DNA from: Moniliella sp. 'wahieum' | Taxonomy: Eukaryota | Assembly: GCA_003971905.1 (NCBI GenBank) | Contig: RSEE01000027.1 | Coordinates: forward strand, 682,001 to 725,112 | DNA: 43,112 bases | Reading direction: 5' to 3' | In this document: one piece after another, positions 5,544-41,896 of the stretch | Numbering within the stretch: the stretch's first letter is position 1 | Layout: each line of letters begins with the position of its first letter | Program-made: the position numbers and the translations under genes | Notes under the pieces: generated by a model | The model's database searches: none | Seen by the model: the letters and a program-made list of their open reading frames with translations, nothing else | What the model was told of the DNA's origin: nothing

Positions 5544-6465
5544 GGTGATGATGGTAAAGGTGGGGGGGCAAGGTGGGTCGCGGAGGCGGGGTGCTCAAAA
5601 GGGTGTATACATTGCTGGTTGGAGCGATCTACAAAGGTTGTGTGAGACCAGCTTTACTGAGCAAAAATGCACAACGGAGCGAAGGGCTTTTTGTCACAGC
5701 GTCACACGGACGAGAGGAGGAACTAGGAATGGGAGTCTCCAGGCACGGGCCAATATAGAGCTACTAACTAGTAGTCCTTAGGCCTTAGGGACAGTACCTA
5801 GTCACTATATCTACTAGCTACGATACATTCACAAACCCAACATTCGTAATTGGCCCATGAATTAGTGATGCAGACCGTGCACCCGGCCCCACGTTTTTAC
5901 ACCCGTTACGCGTTATTATAGGGTTGCAAGCTGCCCCAGTTAATTTCAACGTAGATCGTCTGTGTCCTCTGAACTCATCGAACCTCTGCCTCAGCGCCTG
6001 AGTGACCTGAGTCGGGCAGTGCCTCACCAGAGCTGCCACTGCCTAACCCTACCGCTCATTGTCGCTGCCTGGCCGCCTGGCTGCCTGCAAAACCTGCGGC
6101 AACCTGAGACATGACGCGTGACGCGTGAATATCCGGAACAGGAACAGCGATCGCAGGAATGGTTTCGGGGTGTTAGAGCGTAGAACGGCGGCATCGAAGA
6201 CGCTGAGATTGAAGAGGCGCTGAGCGGATCTGTGATCTGGGAGCCCCCGAGACGCTCGATGCGTAGGGCATGGCAGTCGTATGCCCGATGGGACCGCCCC
6301 GCATCAAACAGACGTTTCCGCTCCAGTTGTCCAACTCTGTCTTCGGCCAGCATTGCTGGTTGCTCTCTTCCGCCGCCTCAATTGCCCTCAGCGCGCTCAG
6401 CCCGGGCCCCTGTGCCCCCTCCAGCATCGCCTCCGCTCTGAGAGCACATCATATCACAGCACAGC

Positions 6466-17000: not shown

Positions 17001-17093
17001 GGCGAGATAGCGAAGTGGTTAACGCGCTGTGTTTAGGTTCTCTGGCCTCAACCGCAGTCCTCCGGGGCGTGGGTTCGAACCCCACTCTCGTCA
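17001..17093 (+). tRNA. tRNA-Leu(TAG) with a 14-nt intron
   Basis: Acceptor stem GGCGAGA/TCTCGTC; anticodon stem CTGTG/CGCAG; anticodon TAG at 17034-17036; intron 17038-17051 after position 37; long variable arm; T-arm GTGGG-TTCGAAC-CCCAC; downstream T-run. Confidence 0.93.
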
Positions 17094-17269
17094 CTTTTGT
17101 CGCTCCATATTTTTTAACCCCCTTATTTATGCTTAAGTTCCGTGGCCTGGCTCGCCCCCCCCTCCCCACCATCCCCAGTCCCGCAGGGTCTGCGTTTTAC
17201 TTTTTGCAGGTATCTGTATGCGCATCGTACCCACACAGATCAACTCGCTCTACACTCTTGGGCTCGGGG

Positions 17270-19950
17270 CCACCTGAGGGCCTGAGGCCTTGAAGCTTGA
17301 GGATTGCAGCATGTGTTTTGGCTGGCCTCGCGCCACTTGTCGTGTGGCAGGTGGGTATGAAATTTGTGCAAGAGAAGAGAGCAGAGACCTTCTGGATGAG
17401 GCAGGTGGTAGATGCACTTGAAGCTTGAAGCCCAGGAAGCGAGGCACAGCAAGACGCAGCGCTGGCGCAGCGCTGGCTTGAAGTTGGGTTTGCTGCCGGC
17501 GGGCGTTGAGAATGGTGTGGTGGGGGTGACAGTGCGGGACAGTACGCACCTGTGATATGTGATACCCATCGGAGTGGACCAGGGGCCTGGTCAGAGGTTT
17601 GCGTTTACGCGTTTAGTTTACGCGTCCAATTTGACAGCCTTATGAATATGACCCCGCCAAACCCTATCATATTTATCCCATCGTACCCGGCGGCACTGTC
17701 ATGATGCATGATGCATCATTTGTTTTCTCTTTTCTCTTTTCCCTTTTCTCTTTCCCCCTATGACTTCGCTCGTCTTGGGCCTTAGGCGTTCGCGGGCTTG
17801 AGGCCCTGAGAGGTTGTAGATGCTTTTTGCTGAGCGTTGAGCTCAGCATGAGCGTGAGCAGCAAACCAAATGTGATTTCCGTCACGAAAAAAGTAACCGC
17901 AGAGTGTTATAGCCTAGGATAAAAGGCGTCGGTAGCCGGGAATCGGTAATCGGTAACCGGTAATCGATAATCATCCGGTGGGCCTGTAGTCGGCACACCT
18001 GAAGCCATGCATCATGATGCATGAGATACGCGTCAAGAAGTTTGGCTTGAAGCTTAAGCTTATTCCGACTCACCGTTTGCACCGCGCTGTAGATCGGTGT
18101 GTGGAACGTGGAAGGAGTGCCCGTGCGAGCGTCGGACGTGTTTTGAAGCTGAAGCTTCAACCAAGGTTCAACTGGACCTTCAAAAACATCTTTAACGTTC
18201 AACGTCGCACGTGTGGAACGTTGAAGACGCATTGACGCGTTGACGGGCCGATGGCAACGATATAGGACTGCTTTCGCGCGCATATGTGTATCCCTAACAT
18301 TGGGATCTGCAGCAGGATCTACACTGTGTATACTGGATCGGTCCTTGTCAACATCTTATCCGTCGAACACTCACCCGCCCCCCTCTCGGTCGTCACCATG
18401 ATGTCACCGCAACCGTTAACACCGGGACCCCCTTTTTGTTGGGGCGATGCCCCACAATCAGCACGCAATCCTGGGTGATATATAGGCATCACTCCTGTTA
18501 TCCGCCCGGACGCTCCCTCTGCTCCCCGATACCCTCTCCGCTTTACAAGGTCCTGCCCTTCTCATAGCCTCCTGTATCTCTCCTCAGAGCCCCCGCCACC
18601 ATCTCCTCTCAGATCTCAGATCTCACTCCCCTTAGCAGGCTAACCTAGATGCAAGCTGGCTGGGGCAGTTCTTCATTTTATTGGGTTCTGTGGTGGCCAG
18701 CGACGACGATGTTAGCCGGTCAACTTCAACGTTGTGTGTGTGGACGGGTTGATGAGAGTGCGAGCTATGGATGGATGTCGATGAGCTCGATGAGCGTGAA
18801 AGCCCTGTGTGACATGTGAGTACGTGTGTCTCGCCAGATCTCACTACTCAGACTGAGTACCTCAGTACTCAGACTGAGTGTACTGAGTACGAGTAGTAGT
18901 GACATGTGACATGTGCCATGTGACGCGCATTATGTTGCATCCATTTCGCGTTACGCGTTACGCCTTACGCGCTACGGTCCTCTTGCTGATTCTTATTGAA
19001 CAGCTGCAACCCACAATTTACCTATCGTTACGCGTACGCCTCACACATGTCACAGGCCTCATTGACCTCTTCGGTGCCTTAGATCCCCCTATATGTTACG
19101 CCTTCGGGTGTCACATGTCAGGTTCTGTGTTGCTAGTCACTTGTCCGTCCGTAGTTTTGTGACGCCGACTGTTACACGTCACGCTAGCCTCGGATCCGCC
19201 TTAGGGCCTACGGCCTCCTGAGGCTTGAGGCTCAAGAGCTTGAGGGGCCTGAGGCGACCTGCATTATGTTGCATCCATTTGGCGTTACGCGTTACGGTCC
19301 TCTTGCTGATTCTTATTGAGCAGCTGCAACCCACAATTTACCTATTGTTACGCGCACGCCTCACACATGTCACAGGCCTCATTGACCTCTTCGGTGCCTT
19401 AGATCCCCCTACATGCTACCCCTCGGGTGTCACATGTCAGGTTCTGTGTTACTATAGTCACTTGTCCGTCCGTAGCTTTGACACGCCTATCGTCACGTCA
19501 CACTAGCCTCAGAGGCCGCCTTAGGCCTTAGGCCTTAGGACCTCTTGAAGCTTTTGAGAGCTTGAGGCTTGAGGCCTGAGGCCTGACCGGGACCCCGCCT
19601 GACCGCCTGGGCCTGAACCAGGCCTCAGTGCCTCAGGGCTGAACGGGTCTTCTCCGGCACGCTGCAGCACGACCCTCAGGCTGAGATCTCTCACTAGGGA
19701 TTTGCCGCTTGCCAGGATAGTAACTAGGATGTCTAATGCCGGCGGTGCATAATGCAAGTCACATGTCATCTATGACATGACACCTCCTTCTGGGCCTTGC
19801 TGGGTCCATTTGTTCGAGTCAGCGCTCAGCTCATCAGCGCATCAACGCCAGCCTCGCTGTCTGCTTTTCTGCCACGAAGATCACATTGATGCCTGACAGA
19901 GGTCTGGCCGCCTGCTGGCGCGTGATGCATGATGCATGACGCGTGACGCA
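17270..19950. repeat. Gene-free block dense in 7-nt-period (TNA + 4-nt palindrome) micro-arrays
   Basis: Examples: cttgaagcttgaag 17417; catgatgcatgatg 17700; TAA at 17947/54/61/68; tctcagatctcagatctca 18607; tgacatgtgacatg 18900; (gcgttac)n 18948; (ccttagg)3 19519; TGA at 19563/70/77/84 and at 19923/30/37/44. Confidence 0.85.
18927..19590 (+). repeat. Diverged tandem duplication, period 334 bp (two copies)
   Basis: Copies start with gcattatgttgcatccattt at 18927 and 19261 and share long near-identical blocks (ggtcctcttgctgattcttattga...cacatgtcacaggcctcattgacctcttcggtgccttagatccccct...). Confidence 0.95.
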
Positions 19951-20432: not shown

Positions 20433-22331
20433 ATGCCCCGTATTGAGTCTTCCTGTCTGTATCCGACTCTACGACACTAGTCTGAACCGTGACCGGCACT
20501 CTCCTCTCGCCCGTCCTGACTCGACAACAACGGTGTATGACGGTTCCGCCACGCCAGCCAGCAAATTGTCCAAGGACGATCTCCATCCTTCCTCTCGCAC
20601 GGCCAGTGCTAGCGCCGCAGTCAATGCCTCCACCATTGACGAAGCTGGCAACGAGTGGGTGCCAATCCACCGCGCAAACCTTACGCTAGCAAATTTCGGA
20701 ATCCTGGATGGGTTCCTCCACTCCCTCCACTCCCTCCACCCCCAGGATGGATCTGCCAGCTCCCTCCACTAACACTTATTACATCGAAGAGACGTCCAGG
20801 GTCGATTTGGAAGAGGTGTGTTCATATTTCTCTCGCTCGAGACCATTGAGTGAAAGATGAGAATGACTTGTGCCTAACCCGGTTCTCGTTCTGTGTGCGC
20901 CTGATCAGACTCCAGCCGGCGAAAAGGCCCCCGGGGCAAACGGTGCTGATAGAGCCAAAACTGATTTAGGGCATGAGCTGTCCCCCACCCAAAGCTTGGG
21001 TTAGGCGCTACCGATGGTGGCTAGTTTGCCTTCTCGTCCTCGTCGTCTTGGCAGTTGGGCTTGGAGTGGTTTGGGCGCCGGCCTGTCGTCTAAAGACTCT
21101 TCCCAAGGTCATCCTGCGAGCAAGCATCACCATCGCCCACTTGACTCGAGCGGCAACGACCCTAGAAGATCACCCCACTTCCTCGATGGAAGTGGTCCAA
21201 CCCTTCTTCCAAGGCCTACGGTGTCGGTCTAGGCAACTGGCTTGTTCACGAGCGATGGATCGACGAGAATTGGTGGGTGACCTATGCTCCGAATGCAGGG
21301 GACGAATGGACCTTCCACCAAACACTCGGGAACCAAACCACCAAGGTATTGGATGAATATATGTCCACCTTTATCAACGAGACTGACGTGGAGTTGATGA
21401 GCCAAGTGGGCATCAACATGGTCCGTATCCCTGTGCTTATTGGTTTTGGGTCCCGACCCAAGGCGACGAACCGTACATCAACGGAACCCACCTTGACCAT
21501 CTGACCCAGATGATGGGCTGGCTATGGAAGCGCGGGATGCGCGCAGTGATCGACCTGCACCAGATGATGGCTCGCAATCGGGCGATCAGGCCAGTGGACA
21601 ATCCACCCCTCATCCCACCTGGTGGAACTCTACGAACCAGGACCGGTCGGACGAACTGATCCACGCGCTGGTCGCTTGGCTCAGCACCACCCCTACCGTT
21701 CTGTTGTGGCGGCAATCACACCGGTCAACGAGCCCAACGCCCGATCGGTGCCACCCCGAGCCACTTGCAAACGACCATGGCCTTCTACAACCAACTTACC
21801 CTGTTCTCTCCGCTGCCAACATAACCATGTTTTTCCACCATGGATTTGCACCCAACCCGGCCGAGTACTGGCACGATTTCGCGCAGGATAAGGATCCCGA
21901 CCTTCTTGTATTGAACGACAACCCCTACCCAGGCTTTTACCCGGCCAAGAACACACCATCCGACGTGTACCAGTCCGTCTGCAACAACGTGAATAACTAC
22001 GTCTCCTTCCCTGTGCCCACCGTCATGACGGAATGGAGCTTGATCAGCGGTATCGTGGGCAACGCAACCGTTCAATGCGGAGTACTTCCAAGCGCAGGCA
22101 TCCGCATACGGCTGGTCGGGCGGTAGCTTCTTCTGGAGCTACAAGGTGCTGAAGTCTAGCCACCCCACCTATGCCGCAACGGCCATCTGGCAGGCCCAGT
22201 GGAGCTTCTTCTCCCAGCTTCAGGCCGGCAATGTCCCACGGGTCCAACCGGGCCAGAACCCTCAACAGTTCTTCACTTCCCTCTCCAACCAGCCCTGTGG
22301 CCCGGCGCCCGAAATGAGCTGGTCGCGCTAA
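20433..22331 (+). CDS. GH5 glycoside hydrolase (exo-beta-1,3-glucanase-like) with N-terminal TM anchor
   Basis: TM WWLVCLLVLVVLAVGLGVGLG. Motifs NWLVHERWI, DEWTF, GINMVRIPV, AVIDLH, acid/base VNEPN and nucleophile MTEWS. Probable intron about 20655-20908. Frameshifted; start uncertain. Confidence 0.88.
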
Positions 22332-23663
22332 CCTTTCACCCAACCTCATTCATCGTTCACGTTGAAGTCTGGTCTGTTCGTTCGACGTTCGTCACTAGTC
22401 TTCGTTCAACGTTTATATATCTCCCCTTTCCTGGCGGTTGCTTTTCCGCCGAATGACACTCCTTCAACTCCCTGCACACCCGCCCAGCTGCCCCCCTCTC
22501 ATCCATTCTTTCCTTCTAGTCCGGTACCTGCTGTTGCGTTCCCTACTTCCCACTTGCCTCTTCTCTTCCCGTTCGCATTCTTTTTGCTGAAGACCACACG
22601 TGTCTTTCCTTTTGCGGATGCTCTGGGCCCGTGCAGTTCGTCATGCCACCGTCCAACTATCTATTTTATTGGCCTCATCATCTTCTCCCGCTTCATAACA
22701 TCAGTTACAATGGAAGTGGCCGAATAAGTAGTTGCTATCTGCAAACATTGTGGTAATGGATAGCCGAGCAAGCAGAGGGCCGTCACACGTAGTTCCATCC
22801 GTCAGCATTCGTGCCCTTCATGTCCCCGGCTCTCTTTATCGGCCCTTCTCGCAAATTGTTCAATGTGGGGCTTACGCTTACTGTCGGGACCAGACACTGC
22901 AGACCCACCTGGTCACCCATAGTTACCAGGTTAACTGTGGCCCCTTTTGTTCTAGACCCCGTTTTCCCCCTTTGTCTATGCCCCCCCTTGCTAAGGTAGT
23001 ACTAGGGTTCACCTGCACTCTCTCCAATGGATAGGTGGTGCTCGCTTTCGCCCCTTGCGCGGGCCAAGCAAGCATCCCCCTTTGTCTGTTTCGACTTGAG
23101 GCTTGGCTCTTGTCTTCTTCCCTTCAGCTTGCTTGAAGACTTGTGGCTGACTGCCTTGCCTTATTGCACGCCTTGAAGCTCATCTTTCGTGCTGCCCATA
23201 ATAGCGTTCCCTAGCCGCACTCTAACACCCCTGTCTTTCTCTGTGTGATTTAGCTCGCATGTTCTCTTCTTCTCCGAGGCATATATCCCTCGCCCCTTTC
23301 CACTCGATGAATGTATGATCCTCACCCTTTCCCCCATCTCCAACTCCATCTCCTGTTACATATTGAGGTCTGGCAGGGAAACTCACTAAAGACTCTATGA
23401 TCTAGACAACTATGGCACCGCGCCGCAACACACTCTAGAACTAATAAGTGTAGAGACCAACCGAGATTAAGAGGGGAAACTATTAGAGGGTATGAACAGC
23501 ATACATATCGTTCAAGCTTCATTTCACGCGAGCAGGAGACGGTGCAGACGGATAAATAGGACATCCAAAGCAAAGAGAGAGCAAGGGAAGGGGAAGAGGG
23601 GGTAAGAGAGACAGACAAATAGGGGCAGCACAGCCAACAGTACAGGTGGCACGGGAGGCACGC

Positions 23664-26256: not shown

Positions 26257-26853
26257 ACGGCGCTAGGACGCCGGCGGGGGGGGCACAGGGGTGTGGGCAC
26301 GCTGGGGGCAGGCGGGGCGGAGAAGCGGAGCGCTGATGCTCGGATGGCAGCGGCGGGGCTGGTGACGGCGGGGGTGCGGGTGCGGGTGCTGCGGGTGCGG
26401 GTGCGGGTGACGGTGACAGCGACGGCAGCGGTGATGACGACGGTGATGGCGGCGGGGAATGGAGAGTGCCCGCACGCCGGGGCCCAATCGTTCCGCAATC
26501 AGTAATCACGGGTGGCGGTGGGTGAGAGACGCCATGATGGCATCATCACACACAGCCCCAGCCGACGCCTGTGGTCGGATTCATGCTTGGCCAGTATCAA
26601 TCAGCGCACGCTGTGGCCAGCGACTGTGATTACCCCACCCGCTTCTACCGCATCAGCCGCAGCTGTAGAGCCGTGTTCTTACAACCCTAACCCAGCACGC
26701 ACCATTGCAGCTGGTCTGCGAAAACAGTTTACCCACGCCAAACTCCTGAGCACAATTGGCGTCTACGTTTGTCATGTAGTCCTCCCTTGAAGCTTCGCGA
26801 AGCTTCATCTACCTCCGCTGGCTGCACCTCGTCAAGCCCAACAGAACTCATCA

Positions 26854-29550: not shown

Positions 29551-31363
29551 CGTGCGTTTCGACGTGTGGTCGGGAATGGGTGGAGGGAGGGCAATGGGCG
29601 AGAAGAGGCTCATTGTAGTCCAAACAGGGGTGGGTGGCACAGCAACACCGGGTGGGGCCTGAGGCGCCTGAGAGGGATGAGGCGCAGGAGTCGGGGGGGG
29701 GGGCGAGGGCGTGGGCGACAGGAGGGATGGCGATACATTTATACTGCCGGGGGCGAGGGGCGAGAGAGGGAGTAAACTGTGATCCCAGAGCGCTCGCATG
29801 CCCGTCAAGGCGCATGCCATGTGTGCACACTGACAAAGCACTGGCATAGCCTGCCGATGGCAGTATCGCACCCAACGTCGGCGATGCGATAAAGCCACCG
29901 TGCGCGTGCGTTCAATGCGGCAGCGGCAGAAGAAGTGCCTCGGCGCCACTTGCATTCTCGATCTCTATCCAGCACCGGCCGAGACTGGCGCGGAAGTGCA
30001 CACTGCCCTCTTTATGAATCACTGCCCGCGTGTCTGAGGGCGCGAGCAGCAACACCAAGATAGCCGCTGCTGCCTCGGCGCTTCCGCCAATGGGAAAGCC
30101 AGTGTTGTAGCTATAGAAACGGCACGTGCTGTAGGCAATGCCAGCTGCAGCTGTTTGGCGTCTGGGGCAGCGAACGACAGCCGGACACTTATCAGCAAGT
30201 CGAGTCTTGTCTCCACCGGCATTGCAGCACACCTATCTCTAGAGGAGAGGAGTACGCAACGCGCCGGGAACGCTGTCCCGTTGAGAGACCCTACCGTACC
30301 GGGGCCCGGGGCTGGCCCGCGGTTTGAGGCCTGAGGCCAGAGGCCTGATACGAGGACGCGTGCCGGTGGCTTGGAGAGGCCTTCTCCCTCATTAAAGATC
30401 TCTTTCCTCCTCCTCTCTCCTCCCTCCTCTCTCCTCTCCCGCTTCGCCCGTGGTATGTGAGACGAGTGGCCAAGTGGCGAGGGCAGGCGCGAGGCGGGCG
30501 TCCATCGATGACATCCTCCGCCAACAGCAGCACCCCGACGGGGCGGAGCGTGATGCAGTGATGCGATGCCCGCGCCGACGAGACTGGATACTGGATGCTC
30601 GAGCGGATCGTTGGGCCTCCTCCAAGGGGGTGAGACGGCACGTGCGCACTGCTCCGCCAGCCGCCTCGCCCGGGCAGCTTCAAGAACCCATCACGTGGCC
30701 AATGAACCAAACGGCGGCCAGCCATCTGCATTTACCCCACACGTGTCTTTGGCGTCTTTCTCCCGCCGTACTACCTGGCCGTGCACTCCATCCACGTGGA
30801 ACCATTACATCAGCTCATACACGCCTCAGGCGTCACGCGTCACGGAAGCTTGAGCGCGTTGCCCGTCACGTGCACGACCGCGCCCCGGTCGGTAGAAGCT
30901 CTTCGAAGCCACACGCCCACTCTGCCAATTATGGGGTCACAGACAAGTAAAATGAGAGGCAAGCAGCACGGATGCTTGTGCATACAGTCCAGCCAAGTAC
31001 AAGTAGGCCTGCCTGCACTGAGCCGTGCATGCTGGCGATACGGACACAGGGCTCAAGGGGACGGGGACAGGGACTACGGGGGGTTGCGTTGCGAATGGCA
31101 ACTCGCAACCGAGGAGAAACGGGGGGACAAGTAAACGAGAGTGGGACTGCATCAGCAGCCAGGGTGAAGCGTGATGAGACAAGGTAGGGAGGGACACGTT
31201 GGGAGGTTGGGTTGGTAAAAATGGAGCACTGGTCCTCAACTCCAGAGAAATACCTGGTGTAGAGCCAAGCAAGGGGGGGTGGGGTGGCGATGTCAAAAGA
31301 TCAATGGCCCAAACACTCGGCGGCCACTTCGAATCCAAAGACCAGCAAGGGAACCACACCATT

Positions 31364-32062: not shown

Positions 32063-32376
32063 GGCACGACGGGGGCGGGGGTGGGGGCGAGGGCGGGGTG
32101 GTGGTGTGGTGGCCAAGCGTTCTGGGGGTGCGAAGACTTGGGCTGGACGGCCGAAGCACGGCAGGGCCAGAGTGCTCAGGGGCAGCGTAGGGTTGCACAA
32201 CGACACGCCGTGGGCCAGCGCGTCGTGAAAGCAGGCGACACTGGCGCTGTGCGGGGCGCTGCGTCCCCACATTGGGCGCAACCCTAGCGGGATTCGCCGG
32301 CGGGGATTCGCCCCACCAGTGCGACAGGAGAGCTAGTAGCCCCCACACGGGGCAGCGGTGGGCGCGGGCAGGCGTG

Positions 32377-32480
32377 CGCTGTGCTGCGCGCTGCTGCGCT
32401 GTGCTGCGCTCTGTGCTGCGCTGTGCTGCGCTCTGTGCTGCGCTGTGCTGCGCTCTGTGCTGCGCTGTGCTGCGCTGTGC
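32377..32480. repeat. GC-rich minisatellite (alternating ctgtgctgcg / ctctgtgctgcg; 22-nt higher-order unit)
   Basis: Read directly; lies upstream of SCS2. Confidence 0.9.
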
Positions 32481-35556: not shown

Positions 35557-36142
35557 GGCGGGAGAAGGGCCGGTGCCCCAGGCGGCGGGATGGAGGATGG
35601 TGGGATGTGGATGGGAGTGGGAGTGGGGATGGGAGTGGGAATGGGGATGAAGATGGAAATGGCGCTGGAGATGGCGATGGTGATGGCGATGGAAATGGAA
35701 ATGGAATGGGGTTCGTTGACCAGGGCCAGACGAGCGGCAGGGCTGGAGCATCCAGGAGCAGGCGGCACGAGGCTTGAAGCTTGAATGTTTGAACTGGACG
35801 TTGAACCTTGAAGCTTGAAGCTTGAAGCTTGAAGGGCTACGACGAGTATTGGCTGCGCATCGAGCAAGGCTGCCCTGCAGACGGTGAGTCCCACCGCTGA
35901 GCCTCAGCCATCAGCGCCCCCCACCGCGCCAGCGACTCCTGGCGGTGCGCACGCGGGCAGTGTGTCTGTCCCTGCCATGCAGCCGGCGTTGCCGTGCGAG
36001 GCGCATCGACACTGGCCGGGTGCGGCGGCGCCTCCCAGACAGCACACACCAGCCCCGTGTTCCTGCATACGCGCGGCGTGGTACTCTGCCCATCCCACGC
36101 CCCCCTCGGTTCCTGTCCAGCACAGTATATTGATTGCAGCGT

Positions 36143-40357: not shown

Positions 40358-41896
40358 ACTGCCCGCGTGCCGCTGCGCGCATCACACAGCAGAGCGCGGG
40401 GGCCGTGCTATCGCCACACTGGCGCCCAGCCTCTGCTCCACGCTGCCCCGGCCAGCTTGAAGCTTGAGGCCTCGCGAGCGTCCGGAGGCGTCCGGAGGCG
40501 TCAGCTCCCAGCACGCCAGTGTCCACACGCCCGTGTCGGCCAGTAAAGAAGGCCAGTGCCTGCCAGTGCCTGGCCCCGCACGACCGTGATGTCATCCTCG
40601 CCACCGTATCACCCATGCTGATGCCAGGCACCGCAGCTAGTCGCTGCTAACGCGAACTCTCCCCCCTCATCCGGCTAAAGTGCTTGCTGATACCATTTGC
40701 CACACACCCTATATATGTGGTCCTTTCGTCTTCCGGCTGGTTGAATGGCCAACCACACCGCCGTCTCCTCGCTTGCCCTTGCGGCAGCCGCCCCTCCGTG
40801 CTCCTCTGCCCCCCGTTCTTCCTCCATACTGCGTTGTTTCCCTTTCGTCCTTGGTGTCTTCCCCTCCTGTCCTCGCCAGTTACTCCCGTACAGCAGCCTC
40901 GTCTCCCCTTGTTGACCGCGCCACCTCTCTATCCGTTCTCGTCTCTCAGCTCCTCAGCCAAGTCCCAGTCAAGGTTCAAGTCGCATCGTTCATCCTAATC
41001 CAACCACGTCGAATCACAAGTCCTATTAAGTCCAGTCCCAACTCTACTGGCAGAGGCTTTGGATGTCCCTCCCCGCTGCTACTTGCTACTTTCCCGTCCC
41101 CGAGCCCAGAAGACTTCAAACGCGTGACTACTGCAAACACCTGTGCGTACGATGCCTTGCCACACCTACCAGCAGCCACCCCCTTCAGCACACCGAGAGT
41201 CCATTCCTTTTGTCCCTAGTAGCTCCGCGTATAGGATCCACTCTCCAGCTCAAGCAAGCAAATATCGTGAGTCAACCTTTGGACCTCCATGAATGTATTG
41301 TACCCCTTACACCTCCCTGGCGGGCCCGCCGTGCCTCCTTTTTCCTTCCCTTGCCGAGCCGACTTGCTGGAATTAATGGCCCCGACTAACACCAAGGGGT
41401 AGGGCGTTCAGCCTCAGCACTGATACGATCACAGAGGCGAACATCTACCAAGAACTGAGTGTAAGGATGTCGGTCGTGTAGAAAACGGAAACGGTGGCAG
41501 GCAACGCAGTACGTGACCCTAATGCCAGCGTTAAAGATACAGAACAGATACAGAGCGCCTGTCTAGGGCAACTGCCGTGATACATGACCGTCATGCATTA
41601 TCATCACGACATGTACGCGTCACACAACATTGTTGCTCGAACGTGTCCTACCGTGCCCCCCCTCCCCCCCCACCACCGCCATCCCACGAACCGCGCAGGC
41701 CTCCTCCACCTCATCGTTTTTCGCTGGCGCTTTCGGCCGTCTTGGCAGCACTGTTGAATTTGGAGAAGGGCAAGCCCTGCCTCTACTTCAGGGTCTCCTC
41801 CTCGGGCCGCCTGTCCCGCCTTGGGCTCCCTGCGTGCAGCCAGCCCCCTTCCCCCGATAGCAGCGGTCTCTCGCCCTTCTCCTTGCTGCCGGCTGA

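Follow-up and report, generated by a model that had tools for sequence, protein, structure and literature searches.

What process can write many short tandem arrays that share a structure but not a sequence? The question is raised by a spacer in the nuclear DNA of the basidiomycete Moniliella sp. 'wahieum', within a stretch of 43,112 nt of contig RSEE01000027.1 (assembly GCA_003971905.1, positions 682,001 to 725,112), hereafter called the window, to which the counts, shuffles and scans given below refer unless another collection is named. Between positions 17270 and 19950 of this 43-kb window, a TNA triplet (N being any base) recurs every 7 nt in many short arrays, and the 4 nt between neighbouring triplets are usually self-complementary. 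Here we demonstrate that this pattern is real and lies far above chance, and that its 7-nt period and its T.A pair are exclusive. Our favoured interpretation, to which we give an even chance, is that a cut-and-paste DNA transposon, itself absent from the window, left the arrays behind as scars of its excision.

Enrichment and anatomy of the arrays

The 10-mer composed of TNA, a palindromic 4-mer and a second TNA occurs 46 times in the window, against 3.86 ± 1.98 times in 200 global dinucleotide shuffles (maximum 12) and 4.38 ± 2.36 times in 200 local shuffles of 500-nt blocks (maximum 13). Controls in which the centre or the palindromic gap was changed, 23 combinations in all (centres ANT, CNG, GNC, TNG, CNA, GNA and TNC; gaps of 2, 4 and 6 nt; TNA itself with gaps of 2 and 6), never rose above their own shuffle maxima. 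A preliminary description of this region had suggested such a count genome-wide, against dinucleotide shuffles, other periods and other centres, and within the window its expectation of a specific excess is borne out. The spacer is fully palindromic in 46 of the 84 TNA-N4-TNA sites, where 1 in 16 would be expected; among the others, 15 pair at the inner two bases only, 9 at the outer two only and 14 at neither. When the distance between two TNA triplets was scanned from 0 to 12 nt, palindromic spacers were in excess at a gap of 4 (46 versus 4.2 ± 1.9, or 39 versus 1.4 ± 1.1 with the same N in both triplets) and at a gap of 11 (8 versus 0.0), the latter being the two-unit echo of the former, and there was no enrichment at gaps of 0-3 or 5-10. 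Non-palindromic spacers between gap-4 triplets that share N were not enriched either (24 versus about 20 expected), and plain duplications account for only 2 of the 38 non-palindromic spacers.

The same picture emerges from exact tandem duplications. Of 33 such duplications with period 7, the unit is an odd palindrome in 19, with T.A as the inner pair in 17 of these 19, and the excess of palindromic units is absent at periods 4, 5, 6, 8, 9, 10 and 11 (6/184, 21/74, 5/57, 0/4, 0/6, 0/5 and 0/1, respectively). A general richness in palindromes was rejected as an explanation, as odd palindromes with arms of at least 3 nt number 701 in the window versus 773 ± 25 expected.

Merging of the 10-mer matches yields 36 arrays, where about 4 whole arrays would be expected by chance. 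The two bases to the left of the first TNA repeat the last two of the palindrome in 22 of the 36, and the two bases to the right of the last TNA repeat its first two in 15 of the 36 (chance 1/16 on either side). The match is on the left only in 13 arrays, on the right only in 6, on both sides in 9 and on neither in 8, with a net gain of 7 nt in every flank class and the T.A pair symmetric. The preliminary description took each unit to be a pre-existing odd palindrome duplicated in tandem, which suits the 9 arrays with both flanks in register but fails for the 19 that match on one side. In these one-sided arrays it appears that the palindrome was created by the event itself. In the 12 distinct left-only arrays, the side without a match shares neither base with the repeat in 7 cases and one of the two in 5, which is the chance level; left-only arrays are therefore not 14-mers that decayed into 12-mers, and this origin was rejected. 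Since most arrays match on one flank only, we take the commonest primary product to be the 12-mer xy-TNA-y'x'xy-TNA-rs (primes denoting complements), in which the net gain is 7 nt and the new palindrome is a flank dinucleotide plus its reverse complement. Written as (xy c N c')(y'x')(xy c N c'), this form is found 27 times on the left and 21 times on the right with T.A as the inner pair, and at most 3 times with any other centre. N is identical in 39 of the 46 neighbouring TNA pairs; being copied directly, it makes the arrays direct repeats whose unit is symmetric. Eleven of the 16 possible palindromic tetramers serve as spacers, so that the symmetry is independent of sequence, as expected for P-nucleotides, and the palindromes on the two sides of one TNA are unlike in 15 of 31 pal4-TNA-pal4 cases.

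These observations bear on the simplest explanation, namely that the arrays reflect ordinary microsatellite dynamics in which palindromic heptamers form single-stranded DNA hairpins during replication and consequently slip and expand more than other units. Arrays do reach 3-4 units, paralogous copies differ by whole units, and tandem palindromic units could, by reasoning, fold into 4-bp stems with TNA triloops. However, slippage requires a pre-existing repeat and leaves the first duplication unexplained, as it does the one-sided 12-mers with a new palindromic half, the unlike palindromes around one TNA, and the restriction of the inner pair to T.A when C.G or G.C stems would be more stable. 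It would not require symmetry, yet non-palindromic TNA spacers are at or under expectation; it predicts any unit and neighbouring periods alike, yet palindromes in general are unenriched, the odd periods 5, 9 and 11 have no palindrome excess, and the period-7 excess is carried by T.A-centred palindromic units. The preliminary description had noted that ordinary slippage imposes neither symmetry nor a TNA centre, and we consider slippage quite unlikely as the source of the arrays. A sequencing or assembly artefact is barely credible: the 36 short arrays with their 11 spacers are scattered, each lies within unique sequence, and their flanks obey a strict base-pairing rule. We know of no basecalling or assembly error that yields arrays of this kind.

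A proposed hairpin-excision model

For a spacer that is self-complementary regardless of its sequence, base pairing or templated synthesis is the sole process that we could conceive, and an enzyme would be needed to impose the T.A pair and to set the period at 7 nt. A model of excision through hairpins would yield all of the flank classes and account for both the one-sided flanks and the exclusive 4-nt palindromic spacing. The transposon would insert at nnTNAnn and generate a 7-bp target-site duplication (TSD), xyTNArs. On excision, both flanking ends would be closed as perfect covalent hairpins, in the geometry of RAG, Transib and MULE elements and not with the 1-nt offset of Hermes and Ac, and host nucleases would open the hairpins about 2 nt past the tip to leave 4-nt self-complementary 3' overhangs. 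The left end would then be a duplex ending in xyTNA with the 3' overhang rs-s'r', and the right end a duplex beginning with TNArs with the 3' overhang y'x'-xy. End joining would ligate one strand, which would then be copied, so that one overhang is kept; ligation of the top strand would give xy-TNA-rss'r'-TNA-rs (the right-flank form) and that of the bottom strand xy-TNA-y'x'xy-TNA-rs (the left-flank form). Two different palindromes in tandem between TNA triplets, as would arise if both overhangs were kept, were not found in the window. In either form the net gain would always be 7 nt and the spacer always a 4-nt palindrome of any sequence.

The model tolerates variation in the opening step. 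The gap between the TNA triplets would be 4 at any opening offset, and the spacer would be palindromic for offsets of at least 2, and, T being able to pair with A, offsets 2 and 3 would give one and the same product. N would be inverted at offsets of at least 4, and a few cases fit this prediction (TTA-AGCT-TAA at 1554 and TGA-AGCT-TCA at 18150). Where the target is itself palindromic (rs = y'x'), the overhangs would be identical and cohesive and would give a perfect 14-mer, which in the model is why arrays with both flanks in register (9 of 36) are over-represented. As the scar recreates the target, new rounds of insertion and excision, or replication slippage, would extend it to 3-4 units, and point mutation, partly by CpG transitions, would diversify the units.

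One array gives a view of the predicted products side by side. At 17929-17972, an array on the site GGTAATC, flanked by GG and TC, carries between its TAA triplets the spacers TCGG (the plain duplication), CCGG (the left-flank form) and TCGA (the right-flank form), which are all three spacers predicted from GGTAATC; two point mutations would also give this trio. The preliminary description had listed CCGG and TCGA at 17947-17970, and both are present, but the main spacer of the array is the non-palindromic TCGG. A parallel set (GGCT, AGCT and GGCC) is found in the arrays of the CTTGAGG family.

Comparison with known systems and the weight of the evidence

It is documented that hAT, Transib, MULE and RAG systems form hairpins on the flanks, which are opened by host enzymes such as Artemis and joined by non-homologous end joining (NHEJ) to leave footprints, and the hairpin of the MULE element Muta1 has 43+43 nt and is thus perfect (PMC5499845). 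The footprints of Ac/Ds in Candida and Saccharomyces cerevisiae contain P-nucleotides, microhomology is common in them and Pso2 affects their repair; the centre of their palindromes is the complement of the base beside the element (PMC5873905). As far as the accounts drawn on here describe them, the footprints of Ac/Ds and Tam3 (hAT), Muta1 (MULE) and Transib resemble the scars proposed here in that excision leaves the target duplication in place, the junction bears a short inverted copy of flanking sequence, the hairpin is opened off-centre and the ends are joined by NHEJ with possible microhomology. The window differs from them in its period of 7 (theirs being 8-9 or 5), in its near-uniform products, in the stacking of scars and in having no visible element, and its palindromes are even, as from a perfect hairpin, in contrast to those of Ac/Ds.

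The analogy with hAT footprints of the Ac type, put forward in the preliminary description, does not survive this comparison. An Ac or Hermes footprint predicts odd-palindromic spacers of 3 nt or swapped central bases; palindromic spacers at a gap of 3 number 18 versus 17.4 expected, and the flanks match the unswapped xy (22/36 arrays on the left, 15/36 on the right). The observed period is 7, not that of the 8-bp hAT TSD, with T and A at positions 3 and 5 of 7. The second analogy offered, with the 3-bp TNA duplications of PIF/Harbinger, fails likewise. PIF/Harbinger and the IS1031 group (3-bp TNA or TWA duplication) and IS10 (target NGCTNAGCN) have symmetric targets centred on T-N-A. However, a 3-bp duplication of the PIF/Harbinger, IS1031 or CACTA kind predicts TNATNA or TNATN'A, or else precise excision, and the window has no enrichment at a 3-nt period or at gap 0, where TNA pairs number 66 versus 68 expected (25 versus 20.8 with the same N). 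IS10 differs further in its 9-bp TSD and its bacterial host.

Other geometries were set aside on similar grounds. A RAG/Transib-type TSD of 5 bp with symmetric opening at 2 nt predicts xyT-y'x'xy-TNA, whereas the observed period is 7, and a 5-bp TSD with two P-nucleotides needs both an asymmetric target and asymmetric hairpin opening. A 3-bp TSD combined with terminal dinucleotides of the element needs 11 element families and leaves the flank matches unexplained; a 4-bp palindromic TSD combined with a TNA footprint would put palindromes, and not TNA, at the array ends. Were a 7-nt stagger simply filled in, non-palindromic sites would be duplicated, and only the 2 of 38 spacers already mentioned fit this. 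One feature of the RAG/Transib class is present, namely even 4-nt palindromes in which a flank dinucleotide is joined to its own reverse complement. In the coding joints of V(D)J recombination, formed by RAG and Artemis, the ends that are kept are closed as perfect hairpins, and opening of these about 2 nt away from the tip gives 4-nt self-complementary overhangs and even P-nucleotide palindromes. V(D)J recombination differs from the system proposed here in that RAG and Transib integration gives 5-bp duplications, coding joints are diverse and the system is a vertebrate one; the likeness would be one of shared chemistry, and we claim no homology.

Elements with the right period have been described. 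TSDs of 7 bp are made by hAT7 in Pucciniales and Kyakuja in Laccaria (PMC12730594), both basidiomycete hosts, and by Galileo of the P superfamily, whose 7-bp TSD has the palindromic consensus GTANTAC (PMC4168063), showing that an odd-palindromic 7-bp consensus is possible, although its centre is ANT and not TNA. The 7-nt period of the window would fit the TSD of hAT7 in a comparison of TSD length, and the accounts of hAT7, Kyakuja and Galileo considered here report scar arrays for none of them. As to the chemistry within the superfamily of Galileo, P elements are not known to form flank hairpins.

Several observations weigh against excision scars as the origin of the arrays. No transposase family was matched among the 123 of 186 open reading frames (ORFs; at least 110 aa) covered by a Pfam scan, and neither a search for terminal inverted repeats (TIRs) nor one for 7-mer direct repeats with inverted inner ends returned a credible element in the window, in agreement with the preliminary description, to which no transposase was visible. 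The best TIR/direct-repeat candidate (22017-22646) was rejected as it spans a gene end and its repeat is not TNA. The enzyme that the preliminary description proposed to act at nnTNAnn, leaving 7-bp duplications with hairpin-derived ends, fits the one-sided flanks and the exclusive 4-nt spacing, but since neither a transposase nor an element came to light in the window, it is known to us as an agent by inference only. The scars are also far more uniform than experimental Ac/Ds footprints, of which 28 types were recorded in 128 events in Candida (PMC5873905), and no excess is seen at TNA-TNA gaps of 0-3, where nibbled joints would show. The density of arrays is very high (about 14 in 2.7 kb), and growth past two units is explained equally well by slippage. 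The chains at 19919-19950 (TGCA within a CGCG array) and 18899-18924 (CATG) need extra mutations to be derived from their flanks; we conjecture that paired CpG transitions from CGCG could yield such TGCA and CATG units. Target consensus is a further point: that of the Ac family is nTnnnnAn, and the T at position 3 of 7 in the arrays is unlike it. Finally, C stands at x in 7 of the 12 left-only arrays but G stands at s in just 3 of 12, so that the outer C/G preference is found on the repeat-matching flank alone and a symmetric 7-bp target motif is not independently supported; the overall outer C/G figure of 34/72 is symmetrised by construction.

A rival reading does without any mobile element: a host nuclease or domesticated transposase would repeatedly break nnTNAnn sites in open chromatin, and repair would duplicate 7 nt and add a hairpin-derived palindromic junction. 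It draws on the same statistics and flank structure as the transposon model, no transposon is present in the window, and dense, uniform scars would suit a resident enzyme. Against it, simple fill-in of the 7-nt stagger would give the plain duplications that are so few (2/38), a hairpin formed directly at the staggered break would, by reasoning, delete 7 bp and not duplicate them, and a candidate gene is absent from the window. We regard such a host enzyme as unlikely.

Inventory, distribution and possible meaning of the arrays

All of the arrays listed in the preliminary description (AGCT, TGCA, GATC, GTAC, CATG, CGCG, GGCC and GCGC) were found at or near the positions it gave. From left to right, the cluster begins with a mixed CCTGAGG/CTTGAAG array (17270-17300) whose end, CT-TGA-AGCT-TGA-GG, is the left-flank form of the site CTTGAGG. 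Two units of CTTGAAG (AGCT; 17417-17431) with both flanks in register represent a palindromic site, and two units of CATGATG followed by TCA (TGCA; 17700-17718) have the left flank in register. Beyond the GGTAATC array, an 18-nt even palindrome, CATGCATCATGATGCATG (18006-18024), overlaps CA-TGA-TGCA-TGA. The left-flank form is seen again in 2.7 units of TCTCAGA (GATC; 18607-18625), whose first base is x and whose last is the A of TNA, and TG-TGA-CATG-TGA-gt (18808-18819) is a one-sided 12-mer. Arrays of GTAC with TCA and TGA (18840-18895; GTAC at 18862-18871) contain odd palindromes of 13-15 nt centred on GAC, and are followed by 3.7 units of TGTGACA (CATG) and then CGCG (18899-18924). Three units of CCTTAGG (GGCC; 19518-19539) have both flanks in register; the CTTGAGG/CCTGAGG array at 19554-19586 has the spacers GGCT, GGCC and GGCC (GGCC at 19570-19586), and TCA-GCGC-TCA-gc (19819-19828) is of the right-flank form. 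In the last chain, CGCG-TGA-(TGCA-TGA)x2-CGCG-TGA-CGCa (19919-19950), unlike palindromes are adjacent.

The pattern reaches past the region first described, with matches at 1554-1610, 5776-6128, 11136, 22406, 30325-30844, 35772-35834 and 40454-40467. At 1554-1610, TTA-AGCT-TAA is accompanied by two units of GTTAAAC. The group at 5776-6128 comprises two units of CCTTAGG (5776), CG-TTA-CGCG-TTA (5904) and TGA-CGCG-TGA-CGCG-TGA (6112), and that at 30325-30844 comprises TGA-GGCC-TGA-GGCC (30325) and two units of CGTCACG (30830). CTTGAAG forms arrays of two and of four units at 35772-35834, the second being exactly 28 nt long, and AGCT-TGA-AGCT-TGA-GGCC (40454-40471) is the left-flank form of the site CTTGAGG. 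Other repetitive or palindromic features lie in the window. An 11-nt unit, CGCAGCGCTGG, occurs twice at 17455-17477 and directly adjoins a CTTGAAG unit. In it an 8-nt palindrome, CAGCGCTG, is joined to GCG, and this single case may be an analogue of the rule at a different period. A perfect 20-nt palindrome, TGAAGCTTCGCGAAGCTTCA (26788-26807), has TGA, AGCT and CGCG modules as in the arrays, but in inverted arrangement, and a tandem array with 10/22-nt periodicity, TGCGCTGTGC(TGCGCTCTGTGC), runs for about 10 copies at 32375-32480 in a region of 72% GC.

The recent history of the arrays is visible in a tandem duplication of about 334 bp (18922-19590, forward strand), whose two copies have 88% column identity and differ by whole heptamers within arrays. 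Four units of CGTTACG (CGCG; 18947-18976) correspond to only two in the paralogous copy (19282-19296), the 14-nt indel lying within the CGCGTTA array; since the copies differ in this way inside an array, the arrays change faster than their surroundings. The duplication has its boundaries inside heptamer arrays, and GTTACGC-like motifs abound in its unit, which might be a remnant of a non-autonomous element.

The window comes from the nuclear genome of a basidiomycete. Its ORF fragments match the Pfam families POP1_C, inositol monophosphatase, RRM, GO-like E-set domain, RING, PA, GT4 glycosyltransferase and CNH, and proteins named for Malassezia, Sporobolomyces and Leucosporidium share about 61% identity with the GT4 exon. 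By a hand count, none of the 36 arrays lies inside the 11 Pfam-matched ORF segments (7.2 kb, 17% of the window), a description to which no formal test was attached, since the arrays cluster. The main cluster, with its roughly 14 arrays in 2.7 kb, occupies a 2.8-kb spacer between ORFs on opposite strands that contains no long Pfam-matched ORF. As context, this spacer is bordered by a transfer RNA (tRNA) gene (17001-17094, forward strand; Rfam 49 bits), for which ARAGORN left the type undetermined with a 4-base anticodon call, behind which there is probably an intron.

Clustering in intergenic spacers is what would be seen if the arrays were selected cis-elements, for example sites bound by a dimeric protein or hairpins formed by untranslated RNA regions, and TGA and TCA resemble half-sites of bZIP proteins. 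However, a protein site needs no spacer that is self-complementary and yet free in sequence, as the 11 tetramers are; copy number differs between recent paralogous copies; and the half-sites are direct, not inverted, repeats, N being the same in 39 of 46 pairs. We therefore hold selected cis-elements to be highly improbable.

Within the collections scanned, the TNA-plus-palindrome rule looks lineage-specific. Arrays of at least three CTTGAAG units were found on 25 viral contigs of IMG/VR (GC 0.35-0.51), each with a single array type, and other TNA-plus-palindrome arrays on these contigs were AT-rich chance matches only. Such heptamer repeats of bacteria and phages share with the window the period of 7 and the unit CTTGAAG, but they are long homogeneous arrays of a single type, unlike the many short arrays with varied spacers described here. 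A metagenome scan with (CYTGAGG)3 returned at least 121 stretches, and among the 80 examined with their flanks no locus of at least 3 kb had diverse TNA-plus-palindrome arrays in an excess like that of the window; low binomial values came from the queried array alone, and two weak candidates (L054 and L028) were not significant. In the metagenome contig L028:1-6662 (GC 0.61), tandem duplications of 7 nt with arbitrary, mostly non-palindromic units form a mosaic. Exact period-7 runs of at least 12 nt number 155 there and cover 34% of the contig, compared with 37 runs at period 6 and 45 runs at period 8, and its rule is not that of the window. The preliminary description did not recognise the pattern as a described feature, and in the literature that we searched no description of TNA-plus-palindrome heptamer arrays was found, exact array 14-mers occurring only in two unrelated papers. 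P-nucleotide footprints are well known; the combination of a heptamer period, a T.A centre, even palindromes, near-uniform products and stacking was not found in print.

It is possible, somewhat doubtful as we hold it to be, that a lineage of basidiomycetes contains, or did until recently, an undescribed transposase or host nuclease that makes a 7-bp staggered cut at nnTNAnn and closes the flanks as perfect hairpins in the manner of RAG and Transib, with scars frequent and stereotyped enough to form an intergenic heptamer microsatellite class of their own. If so, excision of a transposon and repair of its hairpins would be a major source of the promoters and spacers of this genome, and microsatellites would be born through target duplication and P-nucleotides, without a start by slippage. 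The arrays would then amount to a densely stocked natural record of a single repair reaction, in which every scar preserves the empty site, the offset at which the hairpin was opened (at least 2 nt) and the overhang that was kept, data that normally come from reporter assays. A transposon family with a 7-bp TSD at nnTNAnn, so far not tied to such scars, would be indicated as well, and the rule of a TNA triplet plus a 4-nt palindrome would provide a simple genome-wide marker with which to find the element and to date its activity.

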